64,000 bases of DNA from Pseudomonadota bacterium (GTDB lineage Bacteria; Myxococcota_A; UBA9160; PR03), in NCBI GenBank assembly GCA_003576805.1, contig QEVM01000002.1:5666-69665 (forward strand), read 5' to 3'. Positions 3,186 through 50,117 of this stretch are shown here, piece after piece. Positions within the stretch are counted from its first letter, which is position 1, and each line of letters starts with the position of its first letter. The position numbers were made by a program, and so were the translations under genes. The notes beneath the pieces are model-generated. The model did not search any database and had not been told where the DNA came from. It saw nothing but the letters and a program-made list of their open reading frames with translations.

Positions 3186-6100
3186 TCGCGGCCTCCCGCG
3201 ACGGGCGCGGGCGCCGGGCCGGCGGGTGGGGCCGGCGCCGGCTGCGCGTGCGCCTCGCCGTGGCCGGTGAGCCGCTCGATCACGGTGAAGAGCACCGGCA
3301 CGAGGAAGATCCCGAGCAGCGTCGCGACGAGCATGCCCATGATCACCGCGATGCCCATCTGCTGGCGCGAGACGGCGCCGGCGCCCGACGCGATCGCGAG
3401 CGGCACGCAGCCGAGGATGAACGCGAACGACGTCATCAGGATCGGCCGCAGCCGCAGGCGCGCGCCGCTCAGCGCGGCCTCGACGAGCGGCTTGCCCGAC
3501 TCGAGCTCGAGCTTGGCGAACTCGACGATCAGGATGGCGTTCTTGGCGGCGAGGCCGATCAGCATGACGAGGCCGATCTGGCCGAACACGTTCACCTCGA
3601 AGTCGCGCAGAAAGAGCCCGAGGAAGGCGCCGAGCACGGCGAGCGGCGTACCGAGCAGCACCGAGAAGGGCAGCGACCAGCTCTCGTACTGCGCGGCCAG
3701 GATCAGGAACACCATCACGATGGCGAGCACGAAGACGGTCGCGCCGCCGGCCGCGTTCTTCTCCTGGTACGACATGGCGTTCCAGGCGTATCCCATCTCG
3801 GCGGGCAGCACCTGGCTCGCCACCTCCTCGATCGCGGCCATCGCCTGCCCCGAGCTGTAGCCGGGCGCGGGCGAGCCGGTGACCTCGGCCGCGCGGTAGA
3901 GGTTGAAGCGCGTGGTGAACTCGGGACCGCCCACGTCGCGCGACTCCACCAGCGTCGAGAGCGGCACCATGTCGAGGTCGGCGTTGCGCACGTAGAACGC
4001 GCCGATGTCTTCGGCGCGGCGCCGGTACTCGGGCTCGGCCTGGAGGAACACCTTCCACTGGCGGCCGAAGCGGTTGAAGTCGTTGACGTAGGCGCCGCCC
4101 ATGAAGGCTTGCAGCGTCGAGTACACGCTTCGCAGGTCGACGCCCTGCTTGAGCGCCTTGTCGCGATCCACTTCGGCGTAGATCTGCGGCACCGACGCGC
4201 GGAACGGGCTGAACGCGGTCGCGATCTCGGGACGTTCGCGCAGCGCCTGCAGGAACGCGTCGAGATTGCGCGCCAGCGCCTCGACCGAGCCGCCGCTGCG
4301 GTCCTGGAGCATCACCGAGAAGCCGCCGCCCGTGCCGATGCCCTGGATGGGCGGCGGCAGGAACGCGAAGACCTGCGCGCCCGGGATCGCGGCGAGGCGG
4401 CGGTTCAGCGTGGCGAGGATCGCCTTGAAGCCGGTCTCGGGCGTGGTGCGCTCGTGCCACGGCTCGAGCGACACGAAGAAGAACGCGTTGTAGGTCGCCG
4501 AGCTCTGCGAGATCAGGCTGTAGCCGGCGATCGTGTTGTAGGCGCCGACGCCCTCGGTGTCGGCGAGGATCGCCTCGACCTGCTTGCACACCGCGTCCGT
4601 GCGCTCCATCGACGCCGCGTCGGGGAGCTGCACGTTGACGAAGAGGTAGCCCTGGTCCTCGTCGGGGACGAAGCCGGTGGGGAGCTTCCAGCCGAGCAGC
4701 CCGGCGGCGGCGGTCAGCGCGACGAGGCCGACGAGCGACCGCCCGGCGCGCCGCACGCACACGCCGGTCACGCCGACGTAGCCGTTGGTGGCACGGTCGA
4801 AGACGCGGTTGAAGGCCGCGAAGAAGCGGCCGAGCAGGCCCGTCGACGCGGCGGCGGGCTTCAGCAGCAGCGAGCAGAGCGCCGGCGAGAGCGTCAGCGC
4901 GTTGATCGCGGAGATGATCACGGAGATCGCGATGGTGAGCGCGAACTGCTGGTACATGCGCCCGGTGATGCCGGGCACGAACGCGACCGGCACGAACACG
5001 GCGGACAGCACCAGCGCGATCGCGATCACCGGCCCGCCCACCTCCTTCATCGCCCGGTTGGTCGCCTCGCGCGGACTCATGCCGTGCTCGATGTGGTGCT
5101 GCACCGCCTCCACGACGACGATCGCGTCGTCCACGACCAGGCCGATCGCGAGCACCAGCCCGAACAGCGAGAGCGTGTTGATCGAGAAGCCGAGCAGCGG
5201 GAAGACCGCGAAGGCGCCCACCAGCGAGACCGGCACCGCGATCAGCGGGATCAGCGTCGCGCGCCAGCTCTGCAGGAACAGGAAGACGACGAGGATCACG
5301 AGGATCATCGCCTCGTAGAGCGTGTGGCCGATCTCGACGATGCCCTCGGAGACGGCGAGCGTCGTGTCGAGCGAGGTGGCGTAGTCGAGGTCCTGCGGGA
5401 AGCGCGCCTTCGCTTCTTCCATGGTGCGCTTCAGGCCCTCGGCGACCTCGAGCGCGTTCGAGCCGGGGATCTGGTACGTGGCGACGATCGCGGCGGGCTT
5501 GCCGTCGAGCCGGCCGCGCTGGTTGTAGTTGAGCGCGCCGAGCTCGATGCGGGCGACGTCGCGCAGGCGGACCTGCGCGCCGCTCGGGTCGGAGCGCACG
5601 ACGATCGCGCCGAACTCCTCGGCGGACACGAGGCGGCCCTGCGCGCGGACGCTCCAGGTGAACTCCTGGCCCGCCGGCGCCGGCTCGCCGCCGATCTTGC
5701 CCGACGGGTTCACGGTGTTCTGCTTCTGGATGGCGTCGATCAGGTCCGGCACGGTGAGGCCGAGGCTCGTCAGCTGATCGGGCTTCACCCAGATGCGCAT
5801 CGCGTAGTCGCTGGTGCCGAAGATCACGACGTCGCCGACGCCGGGCACGCGCTTGAGCGCGTCCACGATGTTGATGTTCGCGTAGTTGCCGAGGAACTGA
5901 TCGCCGTAGCTGCCGTTCGGCGAGTAGAGCGAGAAGAGCAGCAGCGGGCTCGACGTGGACTTCTTCACCGTGACGCCGAAGTTGCGCACGTCCGGCGGCA
6001 GGCTCGCGGACGCCTGGTTCACGCGGTTCTGGACGAGCACGTTGTCCATGTCGATGTTCGTCTCGACTTCGAACGAGACGCGCAACGTCATGGTGCCGTC

Positions 6101-27407: not shown

Positions 27408-27896
27408 TCAGAAGCGCAGCAGCTCGGTTTCGAGCGTCGCGAGATCGACGATGCCGACGGCGTTCCAGCCGGGCAGGTGGCCGGCGCACTCGCCGGGATT
27501 GAAGACGAGCCGGCCGTCGCCGCGCCGCTCTTCCACGTGGCGGTGCGTGTGGCCGTGCAGCGCGACGTCGTGGTCGTCCGCGCGGCCGCCGAGGTCGCGC
27601 GGGTCGTGCACGACCACGATGCGGCGTTCGGCGAGGTGGAGCACGAGCGGCGGATCGGCCAGCTCGATCCGCCAGTGCGCCGCCGCCGCCTCGAGCGACG
27701 CGCGCTCGCCGGCGTCGTTGTTGCCGTAGACGCCGGCGAGCGGAGCGTCGAGCCGCGCGAGCAGCTCGAGCGTCGCCGCCTGGGTGATGTCGCCGGTGTG
27801 GATCACGCGATCCACGCCGGCGCGATTGAACAGCTCCACGATGCGCGCGACGTTCGCGAGGTGGTTGTGCGTGTCGGAGACAACGCCGAGCTTCAT
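27408..27896 (-). CDS. Metallophosphoesterase, YfcE/MJ0936 family
   Basis: 162 aa. Motifs VVSDTHN, HTGDI, GNND, GHTH. Confidence 0.85.
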   Translation of the reverse strand: MKLGVVSDTHNHLANVARIVELFNRAGVDRVIHTGDITQAATLELLARLDAPLAGVYGNNDAGERASLEAAAAHWRIELADPPLVLHLAERRIVVVHDPRDLGGRADDHDVALHGHTHRHVEERRGDGRLVFNPGECAGHLPGWNAVGIVDLATLETELLRF

Positions 27897-28166
27897 GGGG
27901 TCTGCCCGCTCGCCTGCGGCTCGCTACGGCGGAAGCGGGGTTCGTACTCCGATCGTTGCTGCGCGCTTCGTGGGCGACCGCGAGCCTGATGGGGTCGGCC
28001 CGCTCGCCTGCGGCTCGCTACGGCGGAAACGGGCGCTTTGGCTTCGGTCGTTGCTTCGCGCTTCGTGGGCGACCGCGAGCCTGATGGGGTCGGCCCGCTC
28101 GCCTGTGGCTCGCTACGGCGGAAACGGGCGCTTTGGCTTCGGTCGTTGCTTCGCGCTTCGTGGGCG
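27897..28166. repeat. Tandem array A of a ~95-bp structured repeat (units of 94, 95 and ~81 bp)
   Basis: Units start at 27897, 27991 and 28086. Each has the core GCCCGCTCGCCTG(C/T)GGCTCGCTACGGCGGAA(A/G)CGGG(C/G). The array fills the whole gap between the thiolase stop (28174) and the phosphoesterase start (27896). Confidence 0.9.
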
Positions 28167-28173
28167 GAGAGCG

Positions 28174-29322
28174 TTACGCGACCTTCTCGAGGACGTGGAT
28201 CGCGCAGGCGGAGCCGAGGCCGATCACGTGGGTCATGCCGAGGCGGGCGTTCGGGACCTGGCGCTTGCCGGCTTCGCCGCGCAGGTGGGTGGTGACCTCG
28301 TAGACGTTCGCGATGCCGGTCGCGCCGAGCGGGTGGCCCTTCGAGAGCAGGCCGCCCGAGACGTTGACCGGCACCTTGCCGCCGAGCGCGGTCGCGCCGC
28401 TGTCGATCATGCGGCCCGCCTCGCCGTCGCCGCACAGGCCGAGGTTCTCGTAGTGCAGGATCTCGGCGGTCGCGAAGCAGTCGTGCAGCTCGACGAGGTT
28501 GATGTCCTCCGGGCCGCAGCCCGCCATCTCGTAGGCCTTCTTGGCCGCGAGCCGGGTGCAAGTGTTGACGTCCGGCATGACGAGGTCGCGCTCCTGCCAC
28601 GGATCGCTCGTCAGCACCGACGCCTTCACGCGCACGGCGCGCTTCAGGAGGCCCAGCTCCCTCGCCTTGCGCTCGCTGCACAGCACCGCGGCGGCCGAGC
28701 CGTCGACGTTCACCGAGCACATCAGCTTGGTGTTGGGGTACGCGATCATCTCCGCGCCCATCACCTGCTCGAGCGGCGTCTCGATCTGGTACATCGCCTT
28801 CGGGTTCATGGTCGAGTGGTGGTGGTTCTTCACCGACACCTTGGCGAACTGCTCGAAGGTCGTGCCGTACTTGCGCGCGTGCTCCTGGCCGGCCTCCGCG
28901 AACACCGCCGGCATCGTCATCGAGCCGAGCAGGCCTTCCTTCGGGATGCCGCCGCCGCCGCCGCCGCCGCCGAGCAGGCCGCTGCCCATCTTCTCGACGC
29001 CGACCGCGAGCACGACGTCGTAGATGCCCGCCTTGATCGCCATCCAGCCTTCGCGAAAGGCGGTCGCGCCGGTGGCGCAGGCGTTGGCGCAGTTGACCAC
29101 CGGGATGCCGGTCTGGCCGATCTGCTGCAGCACGCGCTGGCCGACCATCGCGCCGGCCTGCCCGAGGTTGCCGCAGTAGAGCGCCTCCATGTCCTGGATC
29201 TCGAGGCCGCAGTCGTCGAGGGCCATCAGCGCGGCCTGCGCGCCGAGCGCCTCGACCGCCGGGCCGGTGCCCGCCTTCATGAACTTGATCATGTCGATGC
29301 CGACGACGTAGACGTCGCTCAT
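28174..29322 (-). CDS. Thiolase-fold protein, SCP-x / lipid-transfer-protein type
   Basis: 382 aa. Motifs VVNCANACATGATAF (active-site Cys context), NVSGGLLSKGHPLGATG and LGLGSAC. Contains a G8 run. Confidence 0.9.
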   Translation of the reverse strand: MSDVYVVGIDMIKFMKAGTGPAVEALGAQAALMALDDCGLEIQDMEALYCGNLGQAGAMVGQRVLQQIGQTGIPVVNCANACATGATAFREGWMAIKAGIYDVVLAVGVEKMGSGLLGGGGGGGGIPKEGLLGSMTMPAVFAEAGQEHARKYGTTFEQFAKVSVKNHHHSTMNPKAMYQIETPLEQVMGAEMIAYPNTKLMCSVNVDGSAAAVLCSERKARELGLLKRAVRVKASVLTSDPWQERDLVMPDVNTCTRLAAKKAYEMAGCGPEDINLVELHDCFATAEILHYENLGLCGDGEAGRMIDSGATALGGKVPVNVSGGLLSKGHPLGATGIANVYEVTTHLRGEAGKRQVPNARLGMTHVIGLGSACAIHVLEKVA

Positions 29323-29335
29323 TGCTCTTCTCCTG

Positions 29336-29500
29336 TGGGGTTGCTCGTTCGTGCAAGCTTGGTGAAGGGCCCGCTCGCCTGCGGCTCGCTACGGCGGAAA
29401 CGGGCGCCTTTGCTTCGATCGTTGATTTGCCCTTCGTGTACGACCGCGAGCCTGATGGGTCGGCCCGCTCGCCTGCGGCTCGCTACGGCGGAAACGGGGC
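29336..29500. repeat. Array B of the same repeat family (degenerate tail plus one full unit plus one truncated unit)
   Basis: Cores at 29369-29405 and 29463-29499 match array A with 0-1 mismatches. The array fills the 186-bp gap between the DUF35 gene stop (29509) and the thiolase start (29322). Confidence 0.9.
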
Positions 29501-29508
29501 TGCGTGCG

Positions 29509-29919
29509 CTAGCGCGGCTCGAAGAAGTACGAGAGGTACGAGTTGCCCTCGCGGTCCTTGCGGCCGAGCGCGTCCTTGTAGACGACGCGCACGGGCATGC
29601 CGAACTGGATCTTCTTGGGATCGGGGTCGACGCCGATCAGGTTGCCCTTCACCGTGCCGCCGCCGTCGAGGTCGACGATCGCCGACACGTACGGCACCTG
29701 GATGCCGGGGAACGAGCGGCACACGATCGAGTAGACGTAGAGCTTGCCTTCGTTCGAGAGCTTGGTGGGCGCCAGCTTGCCGCGCGTGCCGCACTTCGAG
29801 CAGACGTCGCGCGCGCCCAGAAAGATGGACCCGCAGCTGCCGCACTTGTGCCCCTCGAGGTACGGGTCGCCGGACTCGGGGATCTTCAGGTAGTCGACGA
29901 CGGGCAGGGGATTGGACAT
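29509..29919 (-). CDS. Zn-ribbon plus OB-fold protein (DUF35 family), usual partner of SCP-x-type thiolases
   Basis: 136 aa. Rubredoxin-like CGSCGSIFLGARDVCSKCG followed by an OB-fold segment. Confidence 0.85.
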   Translation of the reverse strand: MSNPLPVVDYLKIPESGDPYLEGHKCGSCGSIFLGARDVCSKCGTRGKLAPTKLSNEGKLYVYSIVCRSFPGIQVPYVSAIVDLDGGGTVKGNLIGVDPDPKKIQFGMPVRVVYKDALGRKDREGNSYLSYFFEPR

Positions 29920-30063: not shown

Positions 30064-31395
30064 TCACGTCTCGACGGCGAACAGCTGCCAGGTTTCGGGG
30101 ACGCCCTTGAGCGCGTGCTCGCCGCGATCGCTGAAGCGGAGCCCGGAGCCCGCGACCAGCTCCTTCACGGTGCGCGACACGCGGACCTCGCCGCCGGGCG
30201 CCGACGCGGCGATGCGCGCGCCCACGTGGACGGCGAGGCCGGTGACCTTGTCGCCGACGAGCAGACACTCGCCGGTGTGGAGCCCTGCGCGGAGCGCGAC
30301 ACCCAGGCGGCTCACCCCGTCGCGCGCGGCGCACGCGCAGCGGATCGCACGCGCCGGGCCGTCGAACGCCGCCAGGAACCCGTCGCCCGCGGTGTCGACC
30401 TCGCGGCCCCCGAAGCGCGCGACCTCGCGGCGCAGGATCGCGTGATAGCTCGCGAGGACCTCGCTCCAGCGGCGGTCGCCGAGACGCGCCACGAGCGCCG
30501 TCGAATCGGTGAGATCGGTGAACAGCACGGTCGCGAGCACCCGATCGCGCTCCGCCACGGCAGGCGGCGTCTCGCCGGTCAGGAACTCCTGCACGGCGCG
30601 CAGGATGGGCTCGGGATCGCCGGTCCACGCGAAGTGGTCGGCGCCCGGCAGCTCGACGTAGCGCGCGCCCTCGATGTGCTCGGCCAGGTAGCGGCCCGCG
30701 GCGGCAGGGACGACGCGATCCTGCGCCCGGTGCAACACCAGCGTCGGCACGCGCACCGAGGGCAGCACGTCGCGCACGTCGGTGTCGGGGAGCGCGCCCA
30801 GCAGCGTGCGGATGCCGCCCGGGCTCACGGACAGCCGCTCGTAGCGGCTCCAGCGCTCGCGGAAGGTCGGGTCGTCGGCCTGCGACGGAGCGAACAGCGC
30901 CGCAGCGCTGCCGCGCCCCCAGCCCTCGACCACGCGCTCGACGAACGGGTCGAAGCGCTCGCGCGGGTGGCCCGCGGAGTAGCCGGGCTCGTTCACGAGC
31001 CGCGCGAAGGTGTTGCACAGGATCAGCGCGGAGGTCCGCTCGGGGTGGCTGGCCGCGAAGAGCGTGCACATCGGACCGCCTTCGGAGATGCCGAGCAGCG
31101 CTGCGCGCGACACGCCGGCGGCGTCGAGCACCGCGCGCACGTCGTCCATGCGCTCCTCGAGGTTCGGCAGTCGGGCGACGCGATCGGAGAGACCGGTGCC
31201 GCGCCGGTCGAGCAGGATCAGGCGACTGAACGCGGCGAGTCGACGCAGAAAGGCCGCGACGTCCGGCTCCTCCCACGCGTGTTCGACGTGGGACACCCAG
31301 CCCGGCACGACGACCAGATCCACCGGCCCGCCGCCGACGACCTGGTAGGCGATGCTGAGGTCGCCGCTCCTCGCGTAGCGTGTCTCGATGGCCAA
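30064..31395 (-). CDS. Alpha/beta-hydrolase fused to a class III adenylate/guanylate cyclase domain (LipJ-like architecture)
   Basis: 443 aa. N-terminal alpha/beta-hydrolase fold (LGISEGGPM nucleophile elbow). C-terminal cyclase VLFTDLTDSTALVARLGD...DTAGDGFLAAFDG...LRAGLHTGE. Confidence 0.85.
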   Translation of the reverse strand: MAIETRYARSGDLSIAYQVVGGGPVDLVVVPGWVSHVEHAWEEPDVAAFLRRLAAFSRLILLDRRGTGLSDRVARLPNLEERMDDVRAVLDAAGVSRAALLGISEGGPMCTLFAASHPERTSALILCNTFARLVNEPGYSAGHPRERFDPFVERVVEGWGRGSAAALFAPSQADDPTFRERWSRYERLSVSPGGIRTLLGALPDTDVRDVLPSVRVPTLVLHRAQDRVVPAAAGRYLAEHIEGARYVELPGADHFAWTGDPEPILRAVQEFLTGETPPAVAERDRVLATVLFTDLTDSTALVARLGDRRWSEVLASYHAILRREVARFGGREVDTAGDGFLAAFDGPARAIRCACAARDGVSRLGVALRAGLHTGECLLVGDKVTGLAVHVGARIAASAPGGEVRVSRTVKELVAGSGLRFSDRGEHALKGVPETWQLFAVET

Positions 31396-42170: not shown

Positions 42171-43633
42171 GCGCGCGCCTTTCGCTTGGCGGCCTCGAGC
42201 GCGGCGTGCTCGGGGCGCTCGCGGTAGAAGCCGTCGAGCGGATAGCAGCCCGACACCAGCCCGTTGCGCGGCGCCGTCGTGCAGTCGCTGAAGGTGCGGC
42301 ACAGCTTGCCGCGCGCGAGCGCGCGGCCGGCGAGCGCGTCGGCCGGCAGCTCGGGATACGAGAGCGCCATGCGGCCGAGGCCGACGGCGTCGAACCAGCC
42401 GTCGCGCAGGCAGGCCTGCGCGACGTGCGAGATCCACTCCTGGAGGTACGTCCAGCCCGACGAGAGCACGATCGCGTCCGGCACCGCCTGCTTCAGCGCG
42501 CGCGCCGCGCCGAGCAGGCGCGCGACGCCGGCGAGCGGGTCCTCCGGCGGCGGATAGCCGTCGCTCGGCGGGAAGAGGGCGGGGCGCTGCGCGTGCGGCG
42601 CGTAGTACGGGCTCGCCGACGTGACGTTCACCCAGCGCACGCCGCGCGCGGCGAGCCCCTGCACGAACGCGATCGGCTCGGCGAGGTCGATGCGGCTCGG
42701 ATCCTCCGCGTCGATGCCGAAGCCGACGCCGTACGGCGTCGGGTGCGGCTCGGGCTCGCCGCGGCCGTGCGCGCCGCGCCGGTGCGGCACGACGTCGAAG
42801 AGCGAGAGCCGCACGCCGATCGCGAGCCGCGGCGCCGCGGCGCGCACGGCGTCGATCGTCGCGAAGGCGAGCCGCGTGCGGTCGGCGAGCGACGGGCCGC
42901 CCCAGCGGCCCGTGCGCGTGCGCGCCGAGAGGAACTCGTGCAGCAGGTAGCCGTGGCAGTGCTTCACGTCGACGAAGTCGTAGCCGCAGCGCTCGGCCAG
43001 CGCGGCGGCGCGCGCGAAGTCGTCGATCAGCGCGTCCACCTCGCCGTCGGCGAGCACGGCGGCGTCGTCGGCGATGCCGACGCGCGCGTCGAGGATCGGG
43101 TGCCGGTACGCGACGCGCGGCCGGCGGCGTCCCGGCTCCGGCACCGACCAGCGCCCGCTGTGCGTCAGCTGGAGGCCGACGACCGGCGCGGGATGCCCGC
43201 TGCGCCGCGCCTCGCCCAGCAGCGCCTCGCGCAGCGCCGCGAGCCCGCGCTCGGTGTGCGCGGCGGCGACGAGCTGGTGCGGGTTGGCGCGGCCGTCGGC
43301 GCGCACCGCGACCGCCTCGCCGCCCCAGATCCAGCCCGCGCCCGACGCACCGAAGCGTCGCCAGCGGCGCAGCGTCAGCTCGCCGGGATTGCCGTCCTCG
43401 CTGCCGTCCCAGCCCTCCATCGGCTGGACCGCGAAACGGTTGGGCGCGACGAGGTTCGACGCGCCGAGCGCGCCGCGCGGGCCGTCGCCGAGCGCGAGCG
43501 GCCGCGCGAGCGGCGCGTCCGCGCCGGTCTCGACGGCGTCGTCGCACGGCAGCTCCGCACCGATCGCGGCGAGCCGCGCGCGCAGCGCGGCGGGCGTGCG
43601 CAGCGACGCGACGCGCGGCCAACGCTCGCTCAC
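42167..43633 (-). CDS. NADH:flavin oxidoreductase, Old Yellow Enzyme-type TIM barrel
   Basis: GTG at 43633. Motifs NRFAVQPMEG, GLQLTHSGR and FDFVDVKHCHGYLLHEFLS. 488 aa. Confidence 0.85.
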   Translation of the reverse strand: MSERWPRVASLRTPAALRARLAAIGAELPCDDAVETGADAPLARPLALGDGPRGALGASNLVAPNRFAVQPMEGWDGSEDGNPGELTLRRWRRFGASGAGWIWGGEAVAVRADGRANPHQLVAAAHTERGLAALREALLGEARRSGHPAPVVGLQLTHSGRWSVPEPGRRRPRVAYRHPILDARVGIADDAAVLADGEVDALIDDFARAAALAERCGYDFVDVKHCHGYLLHEFLSARTRTGRWGGPSLADRTRLAFATIDAVRAAAPRLAIGVRLSLFDVVPHRRGAHGRGEPEPHPTPYGVGFGIDAEDPSRIDLAEPIAFVQGLAARGVRWVNVTSASPYYAPHAQRPALFPPSDGYPPPEDPLAGVARLLGAARALKQAVPDAIVLSSGWTYLQEWISHVAQACLRDGWFDAVGLGRMALSYPELPADALAGRALARGKLCRTFSDCTTAPRNGLVSGCYPLDGFYRERPEHAALEAAKRKARA

Positions 43634-44457: not shown

Positions 44458-45464
44458 GCGATCCGCTCCCAGTCCGCGAGCCGCACCTCGTGCGCGAGCG
44501 GCGCGCCCTGCGCGAGCCGCTCGATCTCGTCGATCGCGAGCGTCGCGAGGCGCTGCGTCTCGGCGCCCATCGCGCCCGCGACGTGCGGCGTCAGGAACAC
44601 GTTGGGCAGATCGTAGAGCGGCGACTCGGCGGGCAGGATCTCCGGATCGGTGGTGTCGATCACCGCGTCGATGCGCCCGCTCGCGAGCTCCGCCGCGAGC
44701 GCGTCGCCGTCCACCAGCGCGCCGCGCGCGGTGTTGACGAAGACGGCGCCGTCGCGCAGCAGCGCGAGGCGGCGCGCGTCGATCAGATGGCGCGTCGCGG
44801 GCAGCGACGGCGCGTGCAGCGAGACCACGTCGGAGCGGCGCAGCAGGTCGTCGATCTCCACCCACTCCGCGCCGAGCGACGCCGCCTCGGCGGCGGACAC
44901 GAACGGGTCGTGGAGGAGCAGCGCGAAGTCGAAGGCGCGCAGGCGCTCGAGCACGAGCCGGCCGATGCGCGAGGCGCCGACGACGCCGACCGTCTTCCCG
45001 TAGTTCCCGATCGCGGGCACCTCGCGCGGCCACATCCGGAAGCCGCGCACCTCGCGATAGAGCCGCTGCAGCCGGAACGCGCGCTTGCCGGCGAGCAGGA
45101 TCGCCGCGACGGTGAACTCCGCGACCGGCACCGCGTTGGCGGCCGCCGCCGACGACACGCGCACGCCGCGCGCCAGCACGTCGGGATCGACGTGGCCCTT
45201 CACCGTGCCGGCGGCGTGCACGACGGCGCGCAGCTTCGGCGCGCGGGCGAGCAGCGCCGCGTCGATGCGCGGCGAGCCCCAGCCCGTGAGCAGGATCTCC
45301 GCCTGCGGCAGCAGCGCGCCGGCGCGCGCGTCGTCGAAGCGGGCGAGCGGCGCGGCGTCGGGCACGTCGGCGATCGCGGCGAGGCGCGCGCGGTGCGCGT
45401 CGGTCATGAGCTCGGTCGTCAGCGCCGGCGCCATCGCCAGCACGACCGTCGGGCGCTGCGCCAC
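44454..45464 (-). CDS. D-isomer-specific 2-hydroxyacid dehydrogenase, NAD-binding
   Basis: 336 aa. Motifs GKTVGVVGASRIGRLV (Rossmann), NTARGALVD and TPHVAG. Confidence 0.9.
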   Translation of the reverse strand: MAQRPTVVLAMAPALTTELMTDAHRARLAAIADVPDAAPLARFDDARAGALLPQAEILLTGWGSPRIDAALLARAPKLRAVVHAAGTVKGHVDPDVLARGVRVSSAAAANAVPVAEFTVAAILLAGKRAFRLQRLYREVRGFRMWPREVPAIGNYGKTVGVVGASRIGRLVLERLRAFDFALLLHDPFVSAAEAASLGAEWVEIDDLLRRSDVVSLHAPSLPATRHLIDARRLALLRDGAVFVNTARGALVDGDALAAELASGRIDAVIDTTDPEILPAESPLYDLPNVFLTPHVAGAMGAETQRLATLAIDEIERLAQGAPLAHEVRLADWERIA

Positions 45465-49616: not shown

Positions 49617-50117
49617 ATGTCGGCCAAGAAGCGCGAGAAGAAGGCTCGGAAGAAGACGGAGAAGAAGCAGGCCAAGCAGGCGAAGAAGCAGGAGAAGCAG
49701 GCCCGGAAGACCGCGCGGGCGCAAGGCCCGGAGCCGGTGAAGACGGGCAAGGGCGCGACGCCGCTCGAGGTCGCGCAGGCCGTCGTCCCGCTGCTCCGCT
49801 CGGGCGCGGCGCACGAGGTCGAGAGCGCGTGGCTCGCGCCGGGCGTCGAGTCGGTCGAGGGCGCCGGCGTCGCGCTCGCGTGGTCCGGCAAGCCCGCCGT
49901 GCTCGCGAAGTACCGCGCGTGGGAGGCCGACCACGAGATCCACTCGATGCAAGTCGACGGCCCGTGGGTCGGCGCGACCGGCTTCGCGCTGCGCTACGCG
50001 ATCGACGTCACGCAGAAGTCGACCGGGCAGCGCTCGCAGATGGAAGAGATCGCGGTGTACACGGTGAAGAACGGCAAGATCGTGCGCGAGGAGTTCCACT
50101 TCCGCGTGCCGGGATAG
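49617..50117 (+). CDS. NTF2/SnoaL-like domain protein with a Lys-rich basic N-terminal tail
   Basis: ATG at 49617 with SD GAAGGAGG. Tail MSAKKREKKARKKTEKKQAKQAKKQEKQARKTARAQ. The C-terminus ...EIAVYTVKNGKIVREEFHF is SnoaL-like. Confidence 0.65.
   Translation: MSAKKREKKARKKTEKKQAKQAKKQEKQARKTARAQGPEPVKTGKGATPLEVAQAVVPLLRSGAAHEVESAWLAPGVESVEGAGVALAWSGKPAVLAKYRAWEADHEIHSMQVDGPWVGATGFALRYAIDVTQKSTGQRSQMEEIAVYTVKNGKIVREEFHFRVPG

Follow-up and report, generated by a model that had tools for sequence, protein, structure and literature searches.

What are the 95-nt repeats that fill both intercistronic gaps of a three-gene operon, and are they peculiar to this locus or members of a dispersed family? 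The window (the whole 64-kb stretch of DNA that was analysed) carries this operon on its minus strand, and Pfam domains (OB_ChsH2_C/zf-ChsH2, Thiolase_N/C and Metallophos_2) supported the three gene identities proposed earlier. Genes and repeat arrays are listed in operon order.

29509..29919, minus strand: first operon gene, a DUF35 / ChsH2-type OB-fold and zinc-ribbon protein (Pfam PF01796, 1.5e-15; PF12172)
29323..29508, minus strand: array B, one 5'-truncated and one long unit, then the thiolase's own ribosome-binding region
29328..29334, minus strand: native thiolase Shine-Dalgarno sequence, AGGAGAA, kept downstream of the inserted units
28174..29322, minus strand: second operon gene, a thiolase of the SCP-x type (Pfam PF22691, 1.9e-40)
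27897..28173, minus strand: array A, three long-form units head-to-tail of ~90, 95 and 94 nt in operon-sense order
27408..27896, minus strand: third operon gene, a Metallophos_2 phosphoesterase (Pfam PF12850, 3.2e-27, match from residue 1)

The DUF35 protein shares 83% identity with its orthologue at another metagenomic locus (L002) and the thiolase 88-100% with its orthologues, while the N-terminus of the phosphoesterase lines up with those of orthologues. The 37-nt core occurs five times, read on the plus strand, with starts at 27904, 27998, 28093, 29369 and 29463 and with 2, 0, 1, 0 and 1 mismatches, respectively, which confirms the initial annotation of five copies in one orientation in both gaps with 0-2 mismatches. 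Shuffled sequence yielded no match, and no copy is expected by chance; in the rest of the window nhmmer found no further copy (next best match E = 0.33). Array A fills the entire gap that runs from the thiolase stop codon (28174-28176) to the phosphoesterase ATG (27896-27894), exactly as had been described, and Tandem Repeats Finder reported it at 27887-28166 (period 95, 3.0 copies, 93% matches, score 467). Of its earlier unit lengths, 94 and 95 bp stood, and the third, put at ~81 bp, is actually ~87-90 nt. Each unit ends in CAT (operon-sense), the final CAT overlapping the phosphoesterase ATG. Array B was correctly said to occupy the 186-nt gap between DUF35 and thiolase genes with two copies of the core; the degenerate unit tail described beside the thiolase start is in part a 3' flank variant of the element (CTTCACCAAGCTTGC) and in part the thiolase ribosome-binding region (CCCACAGGAGA), which is conserved in repeat-free orthologues. 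The sequences between cores are themselves repeated, so that unique spacers are absent, as noted before, and the CRISPR arrangement of identical repeats with unique spacers is not found.

The core is widely dispersed beyond this locus. An exact 25-mer was found on 4 contigs of the Myxococcota MAG Prado149, in at least 17 copies, and a 20-base gapped pattern matched at least 120 metagenome stretches. Among the matches listed, our census comprised 222 copies in 141 arrays on 126 sequences, with unrelated gene neighbours. More than 100 non-orthologous loci in independent assemblies (NCBI MAGs, JGI and ENA metagenomes) carry the core; the 64-kb window has one locus, and none occurs in L128 and L132 (21 kb each). 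Rfam returned no match at the gathering score (Sphinx_1 alone, 18.8 bits against a gathering score of 34, E = 2.6), and the literature searched yielded nothing relevant on the core sequence or on REPs of myxobacteria. The suggestion of a dispersed REP/BIME-sort family, apparently undescribed in Rfam and the literature searched, is thus upheld by its occurrence in other genomes and at non-orthologous loci, by the lack of an Rfam match and by conserved pairing (see below). A phage or plasmid origin was rejected (one match in IMG/VR, none in PLSDB).

The dispersed unit is shorter than the 95-bp repeat first taken as the basic element, since units of 42-49 nt are equally common. Around a conserved core, CGTAGCGAGCC-NNN-GGCGAGCGG, it forms a module of ~42-46 nt made of a GTAG motif, an imperfect hairpin and a YCAY motif, with the operon-sense consensus TTCC(CGC/GCC)-GTAG-CGAGCC-NNN-GGCGAGCGG-(CG/GC)AG-N3-5-YCAY. 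A longer composite, the 95-nt unit, is dispersed too; its conserved flanks consist of a 5' CGAAGC-rich arm and a 3' CAT-AGGCTCGCGGTCG arm. YCAY stands at +28 to +30 in 74% of copies, compared to 16% in a control window. GTAG lies 5' of the stem in all pattern-selected copies, an invariance that, like that of the central 19 bases, is partly built in because both collection scans had GTAG in their pattern; copies found by nhmmer only carry GTAG or the decayed forms GCAG, GTGG, GTAA and GTCG. The core also contains two direct GCGAGC(G/C) repeats at a fixed spacing (13 bp apart), and its G·A mismatches are never changed to Watson-Crick pairs. In E. coli REPs, the mismatch bulge of the stem is required for cleavage. 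Terminal inverted repeats of the MITE kind are absent, apart from a weak match of CGACCG to CGGTCG that certain long forms show. No target-site duplication of fixed length was seen (CTAG stands on both sides at L049 only), and the heterogeneous left flanks rule out a fixed insertion target. Two further ideas were abandoned: that the 3' arm derives from the 5' end of the phosphoesterase gene was not convincing (19/30 matches in the window, weaker against the L002 gene start), and a small protein encoded by plus-strand 31-codon ORFs with TGATG overlaps was rejected, as the repeat period is not divisible by 3, the core frame differs between the two subfamilies and ATG and TGA are not conserved.

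Five hairpins in the window follow the structure supported by the family as a whole, in which a 3-bp outer helix, a bulged GTA and a stem with two conserved G·A mismatches lead to a variable 3-nt loop. Each coincides with a core match.

27904..27930, minus strand: core hairpin copy 1, sense GCC-GTA-GC-GA-GCC-GCA-GGC-GA-GC-G-GGC
27998..28024, minus strand: core hairpin copy 2
28093..28119, minus strand: core hairpin copy 3, with the loop ACA, not GCA
29369..29395, minus strand: core hairpin copy 4
29463..29489, minus strand: core hairpin copy 5

Across 120 distinct copies, 96.8% of cells are paired in this GTA-bulge hairpin, compared to 21-40% in slid controls, and RNAalifold on the long forms gave the same hairpin as consensus. 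The hairpin covaries: two adjacent outer pairs show double compensatory changes (CG to GC and GC to CG) in 35 of the 120 copies, a count reached by none of 500 shuffles, and these 35 cells may stem from one or two ancestral events dividing two subfamilies. Pairing is therefore conserved across copies, as had been anticipated, in a different fold (GTA bulged, tandem G·A stem, 3-nt loop) from that of the initial annotation. The core fold given there (GCCCG/CGGGC and CGCC/GGCG, 13-nt loop) does no better than shuffles, with 62% of cells paired in 120 members; only for the window's GCA-loop subfamily is it the minimum-free-energy fold, and we rejected it as the family structure. The second, junction hairpin proposed there (GGGCGACC...GGTCGGCCC) is perfect in the window copies and one or two others only and is not conserved. 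RNAalifold did not pair the 5' arm of the 95-nt form with its distant 3' arm, and a kink-turn was rejected by inspection because the bulge and the G·A pairs are separated by two Watson-Crick pairs.

Orthologous operons of related genomes hold 0, 2, 3 or 4 repeats per gap. Counting the DUF35-thiolase and the thiolase-phosphoesterase gap in turn, the window and L002 each have 2+3 copies, L130 has 0+4 and L128/L129 have 0+0, the empty gaps measuring 29 and 49 nt; at least 2 copies are present in L039, and the DUF35-thiolase gap of L132 is without a repeat. A CCAGGAGA motif at the native thiolase Shine-Dalgarno sequence is also present in the empty orthologous gaps. Arrays occupy the same operon in at least four lineages, and differences of a single unit separate L016 from L020 and L033 from L040. 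Because the gaps (29-49 nt when empty) are vacant in orthologues and copy number runs from 0 to 4, the operon copies are secondary insertions, as had been supposed, with fast turnover.

The arrays are strictly directional. Among the matches listed, all 81 adjacent pairs within 300 nt are head-to-tail and none is inverted, and a relaxed search (E up to 10) within ±300 nt of every array found no inverted partner; the alternating orientation of REPINs and BIMEs is thus not seen (0/81). The loop triplet is common to 71% of adjacent pairs, compared to 28% for copies from other arrays on the same contig and 18% for random pairs, and identity at unconstrained positions falls likewise from 73% to 59% and 51%. 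As neighbours are far more alike than distant copies, the arrays grow by local duplication.

We consider it about 70% probable that the repeats are a non-autonomous, GTAG-type REP/BIME-like family in a clade of uncultured, high-GC Myxococcota. The hairpin is a short GC-rich palindrome (27 nt, 3+2+3 bp stem, 3-nt loop) with GTAG on its 5' side, as in GTAG-type REPs, though an additional outer helix encloses the GTA. When the window and 125 loci (0.58 Mb) were searched by tblastn with E. coli RayT as query, no RAYT or Y1 transposase came up, and the genes bracketed by inverted copies are housekeeping genes (thioesterase, HhH-GPD glycosylase, NYN protein, rhomboid, SDR); the way of moving is therefore something we infer. 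REP-associated tyrosine (HUH/Y1) transposases recognise single-stranded DNA by a GTAG guide, a stem containing mismatches and, close by, a CA or CT dinucleotide for cleavage. Since the module has this anatomy, the family would spread, or would once have spread, via such an enzyme acting in trans. After insertion into a short intergenic gap, slippage or unequal recombination would multiply the unit locally head-to-tail, with units gained and lost quickly. In the window, both intercistronic gaps were presumably invaded in an ancestor common to this genome and MAG Prado149. The units, which lie in sense orientation, are most probably co-transcribed in the operon mRNA, where extra stable hairpins could block 3' exonucleases or serve as processing sites. 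The phosphoesterase ATG lies 6 nt past the base of the last hairpin, and we agree with the earlier reading that no Shine-Dalgarno sequence stands 5' of it; with its AUG directly behind a hairpin, translational coupling may have been lost and expression probably lowered or uncoupled.

A much less probable reading is a distinct class of hairpin element, and not a further REP family, that would spread and amplify strictly head-to-tail, would home to gene boundaries and might be moved by a non-RAYT enzyme or kept by the host as an intercistronic expression module. At many loci the element lies 0-20 nt from start or stop codons. If such a class exists, its 3' TCAT(G) would repeatedly come to lie at start codons, or at stop codons of convergent genes; it would have donated a start codon to the phosphoesterase in the window and L002, where the 3' CAT(G) coincides with that codon, and would be tolerated in-frame inside prepilin leader peptides, copies being found also inside coding leaders of prepilin-like genes.

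It is somewhat more doubtful still that the copies are primarily a host-selected cis-acting RNA module, an intercistronic hairpin that sets the stability or translation of the adjoining cistrons and is not primarily mobile. Such a module would fit the sense bias in co-directional gaps (30 arrays sense, 13 antisense, among the matches listed), the downstream neighbours, of which 59 of 92 among the matches listed share the strand of the element, the proximity to start and stop codons together with the conserved 3' CAT(G) at the phosphoesterase start, the persistence of arrays at one operon in at least four lineages, and compensatory pairs of the sort that an RNA helix would produce. However, ~30% of co-directional copies are antisense, and among the matches listed a further 15 arrays lie in convergent and 11 in divergent gaps, besides the copies in coding leaders. 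Neighbouring genes are functionally diverse (an acyl-CoA dehydrogenase lies downstream in ~8 of the 59 cases), and a regulon was rejected. Closely related operons work without a copy, and sites hold from 0 to 4. Hairpins and arrays have no extra folding stability over shuffles of the same composition (z-scores -2.2 to +1.6), and conservation is strongest in sequence (the mismatches and GTAG) and not in the helices.

We regard as improbable a further proposal, that a host protein (nucleoid-associated, a regulator or gyrase-like) binds the core as double-stranded DNA and recognises it through the GCGAGC direct repeats. The fixed spacing of these repeats, G·A positions that never become Watson-Crick, conservation in excess of what a hairpin needs and tolerance of both orientations all agree with it, yet the coupled CG-to-GC swaps on both sides of the core fit intrastrand pairing best, no regulator gene regularly accompanies the element, orthologous sites differ in whether they carry it, and the tandem amplification and half-element duplications resemble repeat dynamics rather than operator evolution. 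Finally, the confinement of the window's repeats to one operon and the 91-100% likeness of neighbouring units might suggest that there is no wider family and that this contig was merely duplicated in tandem here or misassembled; the same core on independent assemblies at non-orthologous loci refutes this.

Read as a REP-like family, the element is selfish or semi-domesticated DNA of a common sort, if with some unusual habits, and is otherwise an expected element that brings no surprise. With it, Myxococcota, which the published surveys of GTAG-hairpin repeats do not cover, gain a well-defined family of this type, and its natural pairs of filled and empty sites show the speed of array turnover inside operons. 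For MAG annotation, the family makes spurious ORFs, obscures true start codons and accounts for intercistronic gaps of unusual length, and it probably breaks up assemblies as well. Its head-to-tail organisation and overlap with start and stop codons make it a test case for REP-like target choice and operon reshaping.

Several known systems share parts of this pattern. Like Correia elements of Neisseria and the ERIC/REP stabilisers of enterobacteria, the repeats lie inside operons, are probably transcribed and could alter mRNA processing and relative cistron expression, whereas Correia and ERIC elements measure 100-150 bp, end in inverted repeats and duplicate a defined target, features that we did not see. 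The miniatures of IS200/IS605 elements (PATEs and others), which move by way of single-stranded hairpins, similarly have no terminal inverted repeats or consistent target duplication and show a gene-orientation bias, and recognition of our element, too, would depend on a subterminal hairpin, but they keep both IS ends, each with a hairpin, in contrast to the much shorter, single hairpin here. Enterobacterial BIMEs are likewise mosaics of REP cores and linker motifs in operon gaps with unit numbers varying between strains; there, Y and Z REPs alternate in opposite orientations and are bound by IHF or gyrase, while here all units are direct. GTAG REPs, as defined in PMC3733652 (Myxococcota are not among the phyla listed there), and their RAYT/TnpAREP partners in E. 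coli (REP), Pseudomonas (REP/REPIN) and Stenotrophomonas (SMAG; Nunvar 2010, Di Nocera 2013, Corneloup 2021) differ in that GTAG is unpaired at the foot of the hairpin, compared to a GTA bulged between 3-bp outer helix and stem, and in that head-head and tail-tail dimers dominate and head-to-tail dimers are rare (PMC3733652), compared to 81/81 head-to-tail pairs here among the matches listed; in our Myxococcota hosts, no RAYT gene has been found so far in the 0.58 Mb searched. Both are nonetheless short GC-rich imperfect palindromes after GTAG with a 3-nt loop, two stem mismatches and a CA or CT dinucleotide near the hairpin, both have dispersed intergenic copies, often a few nt from stop codons, and both form subfamilies by complementary stem changes and clusters with flanking motifs. 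GTAG, mismatched stem, 3-nt loop and the position of YCAY match the substrate determinants of TnpAREP (PMC8266576) and the definition of GTAG REPs (PMC3733652).

We confirmed the layout that the initial annotation had described for the minus-strand DUF35-thiolase-phosphoesterase operon, with five cores and both intercistronic gaps (186 nt and 277 nt) wholly occupied by repeats:

29509-29919, minus strand: DUF35/ChsH2-type OB-fold protein
29369 and 29463, plus strand: copies of the 37-nt core, 0-2 mismatches
28174-29322, minus strand: thiolase
27904, 27998 and 28093, plus strand: copies of the 37-nt core, 0-2 mismatches
27408-27896, minus strand: Metallophos_2 phosphoesterase

No match to this core, the segment shared by the repeat units, is expected in shuffled sequence. 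Tandem Repeats Finder resolved 27887-28166 into 3.0 copies with a period of 95 nt and 93% matches, and an in-register alignment from a repeat finder run on the window contained four 92-95-nt and five 42-nt copies; a profile of the unit found no further copies in all 64 kb, whose G+C content is 73%. Each unit in the thiolase-phosphoesterase gap (array A) is also readable as a 31-codon plus-strand ORF (MGSARSPAARYGGNGRFGFGRCFALRGRPRA; 27989-28086) whose TGA overlaps the next ATG; these ORFs arise incidentally at the CATCAG junction, are unconserved in the family and were rejected. Tandem Repeats Finder reported three other repeats in the window (43463-43589, 45305-45398 and 49626-49702), two of them arrays repeating every 36 nt and the third an AAGAAGCAGG-type repeat, probably coding low-complexity sequence. 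The product of the gene upstream of the operon (30064-31395, minus strand) joins an alpha/beta-hydrolase to an adenylate/guanylate cyclase catalytic domain.

The core is also present beyond the window. When one genome per species was scanned for an exact 25-mer, it turned up in a single Myxococcota MAG only, isolate Prado149, on four contigs, and a profile search of this MAG gave at least 17 copies. From these copies the conserved part was defined, in operon-sense orientation (minus strand of the window), as CGTAGCGAGCC-NNN-GGCGAGCGG; this gapped pattern matched at least 120 metagenome stretches, mainly from wetland and sediment samples, only once in viral contigs and not at all in plasmids. 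Among the sequences collected, including the metagenome matches listed, nhmmer found 222 copies in 141 arrays, of which 76 contained one copy, 51 two, 12 three and 2 four. No Rfam family matched (a lone chance hit had E = 2.6, far under the gathering score), and neither the core sequence nor REPs in myxobacteria were found in the literature searched, where the main survey of GTAG and CGTC repeats leaves myxobacteria unmentioned. Set against Rfam and this literature, the repeat family appears to be new, of an already known kind of element (REP/BIME-like).

The repeats are best read as a REP/BIME-like family of non-autonomous elements because they are dispersed, polymorphic in insertion and tolerated in both orientations, and because copies occur in all intergenic classes and in dispensable coding leaders, unlinked to one gene class; the likeness had been suggested initially, and the GTAG-hairpin anatomy described below also supports it. 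Orthologous DUF35-thiolase operons differ in unit number, that is, by gain and loss.

Repeat copies at orthologous operons (thiolase identity to window; DUF35-thiolase gap; thiolase-phosphoesterase gap)
Window: reference; 2 copies; 3 copies
L002 (Prado149): 94%; 2 copies; 3 copies
L039: 93%; gap outside sequence; at least 2 copies
L130 (GCA_031396445.1): 94%; empty, 40 nt; 4 copies
L128/L129 (GCA_027493655.1): 89%; empty, 29 nt; empty, 49 nt
L132: 88%; empty, 29 nt; element-free downstream, next gene not phosphoesterase

The thiolase ribosome-binding motif CCAGGAGA is common to filled and empty sites, so the repeats have been inserted upstream of this motif; together with the empty gaps of 29-49 nt, this bears out the earlier proposal of secondary insertion into the operon. 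Orthologous sites differing by one unit were also found at two further pairs of loci (L016 vs L020, L033 vs L040). The upstream neighbours of the operon are different at every orthologous locus examined; DUF35-thiolase is kept at all of them, with the phosphoesterase next at all except L132.

Relative to genes called with a rough home-made GC3-based caller, 30 arrays lie in sense and 13 in antisense orientation in co-directional gaps, with 15 in convergent and 11 in divergent gaps. The element frequently abuts the edge of a gene with its 3' end: 25/33 cases have a convergent gene's stop codon 2-21 nt from the core, and 19/59 have a plausible start 7-18 nt from it. Read on the reverse strand, TCA within the 3' TCAT is often the TGA stop of the convergent gene, whose last codons the element overlaps or supplies (L005:5890-5930, L023, L084, L066, L063, L088 and others). 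The phosphoesterase starts at the ATG within the terminal CATG of the element, both in the window (27894-27903) and at L002:2215-2230; as first noted, the window gene has no Shine-Dalgarno sequence, and its AUG stands 6 nt past the base of the last hairpin. At L039 and L130, this gene retains a GGAG ribosome-binding site and a GTG/CTG start ~50 nt after the last unit, and at the empty site L128 the phosphoesterase ATG has GAGG upstream. Copies were also found in coding sequence: at L019, one or two in-frame copies, spaced 75 nt (25 codons), lie in the unusually long N-terminal leaders of three prepilin-like genes with a GFTLIE motif (L019:1845-2438, L019:2294-3178 and L019:3941-5038; also L026), the first leader running from an ATG after AAGGAGG to …HKAGFTLIE. 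Prepilin peptidase would cut the leader off, which may explain the tolerance of insertion.

Neighbouring genes are diverse (acyl-CoA dehydrogenases, SDRs, GatC, glycosyltransferases, ABC ATPase, pseudopilins, thioesterase, endonuclease III-like glycosylase, rhomboid). Directly downstream of the element, ~8/59 sense cases (L003, L005, L013, L022, L033, L040, L110, L111) have an acyl-CoA dehydrogenase gene (N-terminus MDFSFSDEQ or MIDFQPTDEQ). Lipid-catabolism genes are common near the repeats, which may simply mirror the gene repertoire of the host clade.

A host-selected intercistronic RNA module is favoured by the sense bias, the proximity of start codons and the persistence of arrays at the DUF35-thiolase-phosphoesterase operon. 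However, antisense, convergent, divergent and intragenic copies, the diversity of neighbours and the orthologous operons that are functional though empty argue against it, as do unremarkable folding energies, with no excess over shuffled sequence of the same composition for hairpins or whole arrays. Under the REP/BIME-like reading, the moderate sense bias could stem from single-strand insertion biased by replication direction.

Aligned on the GTAG anchor, copies share a basic module of ~42-46 nt, TTCC(CGC|GCC) GTAG CGAGCC NNN GGCGAGCGG (CG|GC)AG; YCAY comes next, at +28 to +30, in 74% of copies (16% in a control window). Spacings within arrays group around 42, 45-49, 74-75 and 92-96 nt, so that the 95-nt unit of the window is a long composite form, whose 5' arm (…ACGAAGCNC…ACGAYCGAAGC-N6-GCCCGTTTCC) and 3' arm (CAT-N-AGGCTCGCGGTCG) are found again at many unrelated loci. 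Some copies (L001, L004, L026, L051, L071, L073, L086, L091, L102, L112) have another, different module immediately behind the core, a near-perfect GGCGCC-GAAG-GCGCC hairpin with CCAG after it, suggesting mosaic composition from several motifs. Two subfamilies were distinguished, the majority CCCGC…CGAG and the window type CCGCC…GC(A/C)(G/C). At four left junctions (L038, L049, L120, L123) a short-form copy begins right after CTAG, which L049 carries left and right of the element; a target or a duplication could lie behind this, but other left flanks are heterogeneous.

Two folds were tested on an alignment of 120 distinct copies. The supported hairpin comprises an outer 3-bp helix, a bulged GTA, 2 bp, tandem G·A/A·G, 3 bp and a 3-nt loop, with 96.8% of cells paired, compared to 21-40% when the fold was slid by 1-3 columns as a control. 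Two variable pairs co-swap (CG to GC and GC to CG) in 35 sequences, which 0/500 shuffles reached, and these compensatory cells may descend from one or two events. The inner stem is invariant because its sequence was a requirement of the scans; in copies deviating there, pairs are broken and not compensated. RNAalifold on 29 long-form copies returned this hairpin alone. The core fold proposed initially (GCCCG/CGGGC and CGCC/GGCG, 13-nt loop) failed as a family structure, with 62.4% of cells paired in the same alignment, the shuffle level; it is the minimum-free-energy fold of the window copies (-20.2 kcal/mol, z = -2.2) and is absent from the majority subfamily. The proposed junction hairpin across unit borders is perfect in the window copies and one or two others only, and is not conserved in the family. 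A double-stranded DNA protein-binding site based on two GCGAGC direct repeats would account for sequence-level conservation but leaves the coupled outer-stem swaps unexplained. A purely local duplication or artefact is excluded by the Prado149 and metagenome copies.

All adjacent pairs within 300 nt (81/81) are head-to-tail, and a relaxed search found no inverted partner near any array.

Similarity between copies (same loop triplet; identity at unconstrained positions)
Adjacent copies: 71%; 73%
Copies in other arrays, same contig: 28%; 59%
Random copy pairs: 18%; 51%

Neighbouring copies are thus most alike, so local duplication is the main way in which arrays grow. Half-elements are duplicated in tandem too, either 5' halves (L009:~1290-1385 and L093:~5560-5640; 21-nt repeats of TTCCCGC(G/A)TAGCGAGCC) or 3' halves (L008, L015, L063, L088; repeats of GGCGAGCGGCG..TTCAC), as slippage between the GCGAGC direct repeats inside the element would produce.

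The interest of the family lies in its head-to-tail-only arrays, its overlap with start and stop codons and its in-frame copies in prepilin leaders. Substrates of TnpAREP, the REP-associated tyrosine transposase (RAYT), feature a GTAG guide, a mismatched stem, a short loop and a nearby CA/CT (PMC8266576; definitions in PMC3733652), and a mismatch bulge of this sort is needed for cleavage in E. coli REPs (PMC8266576). The element shares the GTAG guide, two conserved stem mismatches, the short loop and CA/CT nearby. Membership of the REP family is incomplete, as no RAYT was found in the 0.58 Mb searched or among genes bracketed by inverted copies. Furthermore, head-to-tail dimers are rare in known GTAG families, whereas the arrangement here is exclusively head-to-tail, and, compared to GTAG REPs, the GTA of this element is enclosed by an additional helix.
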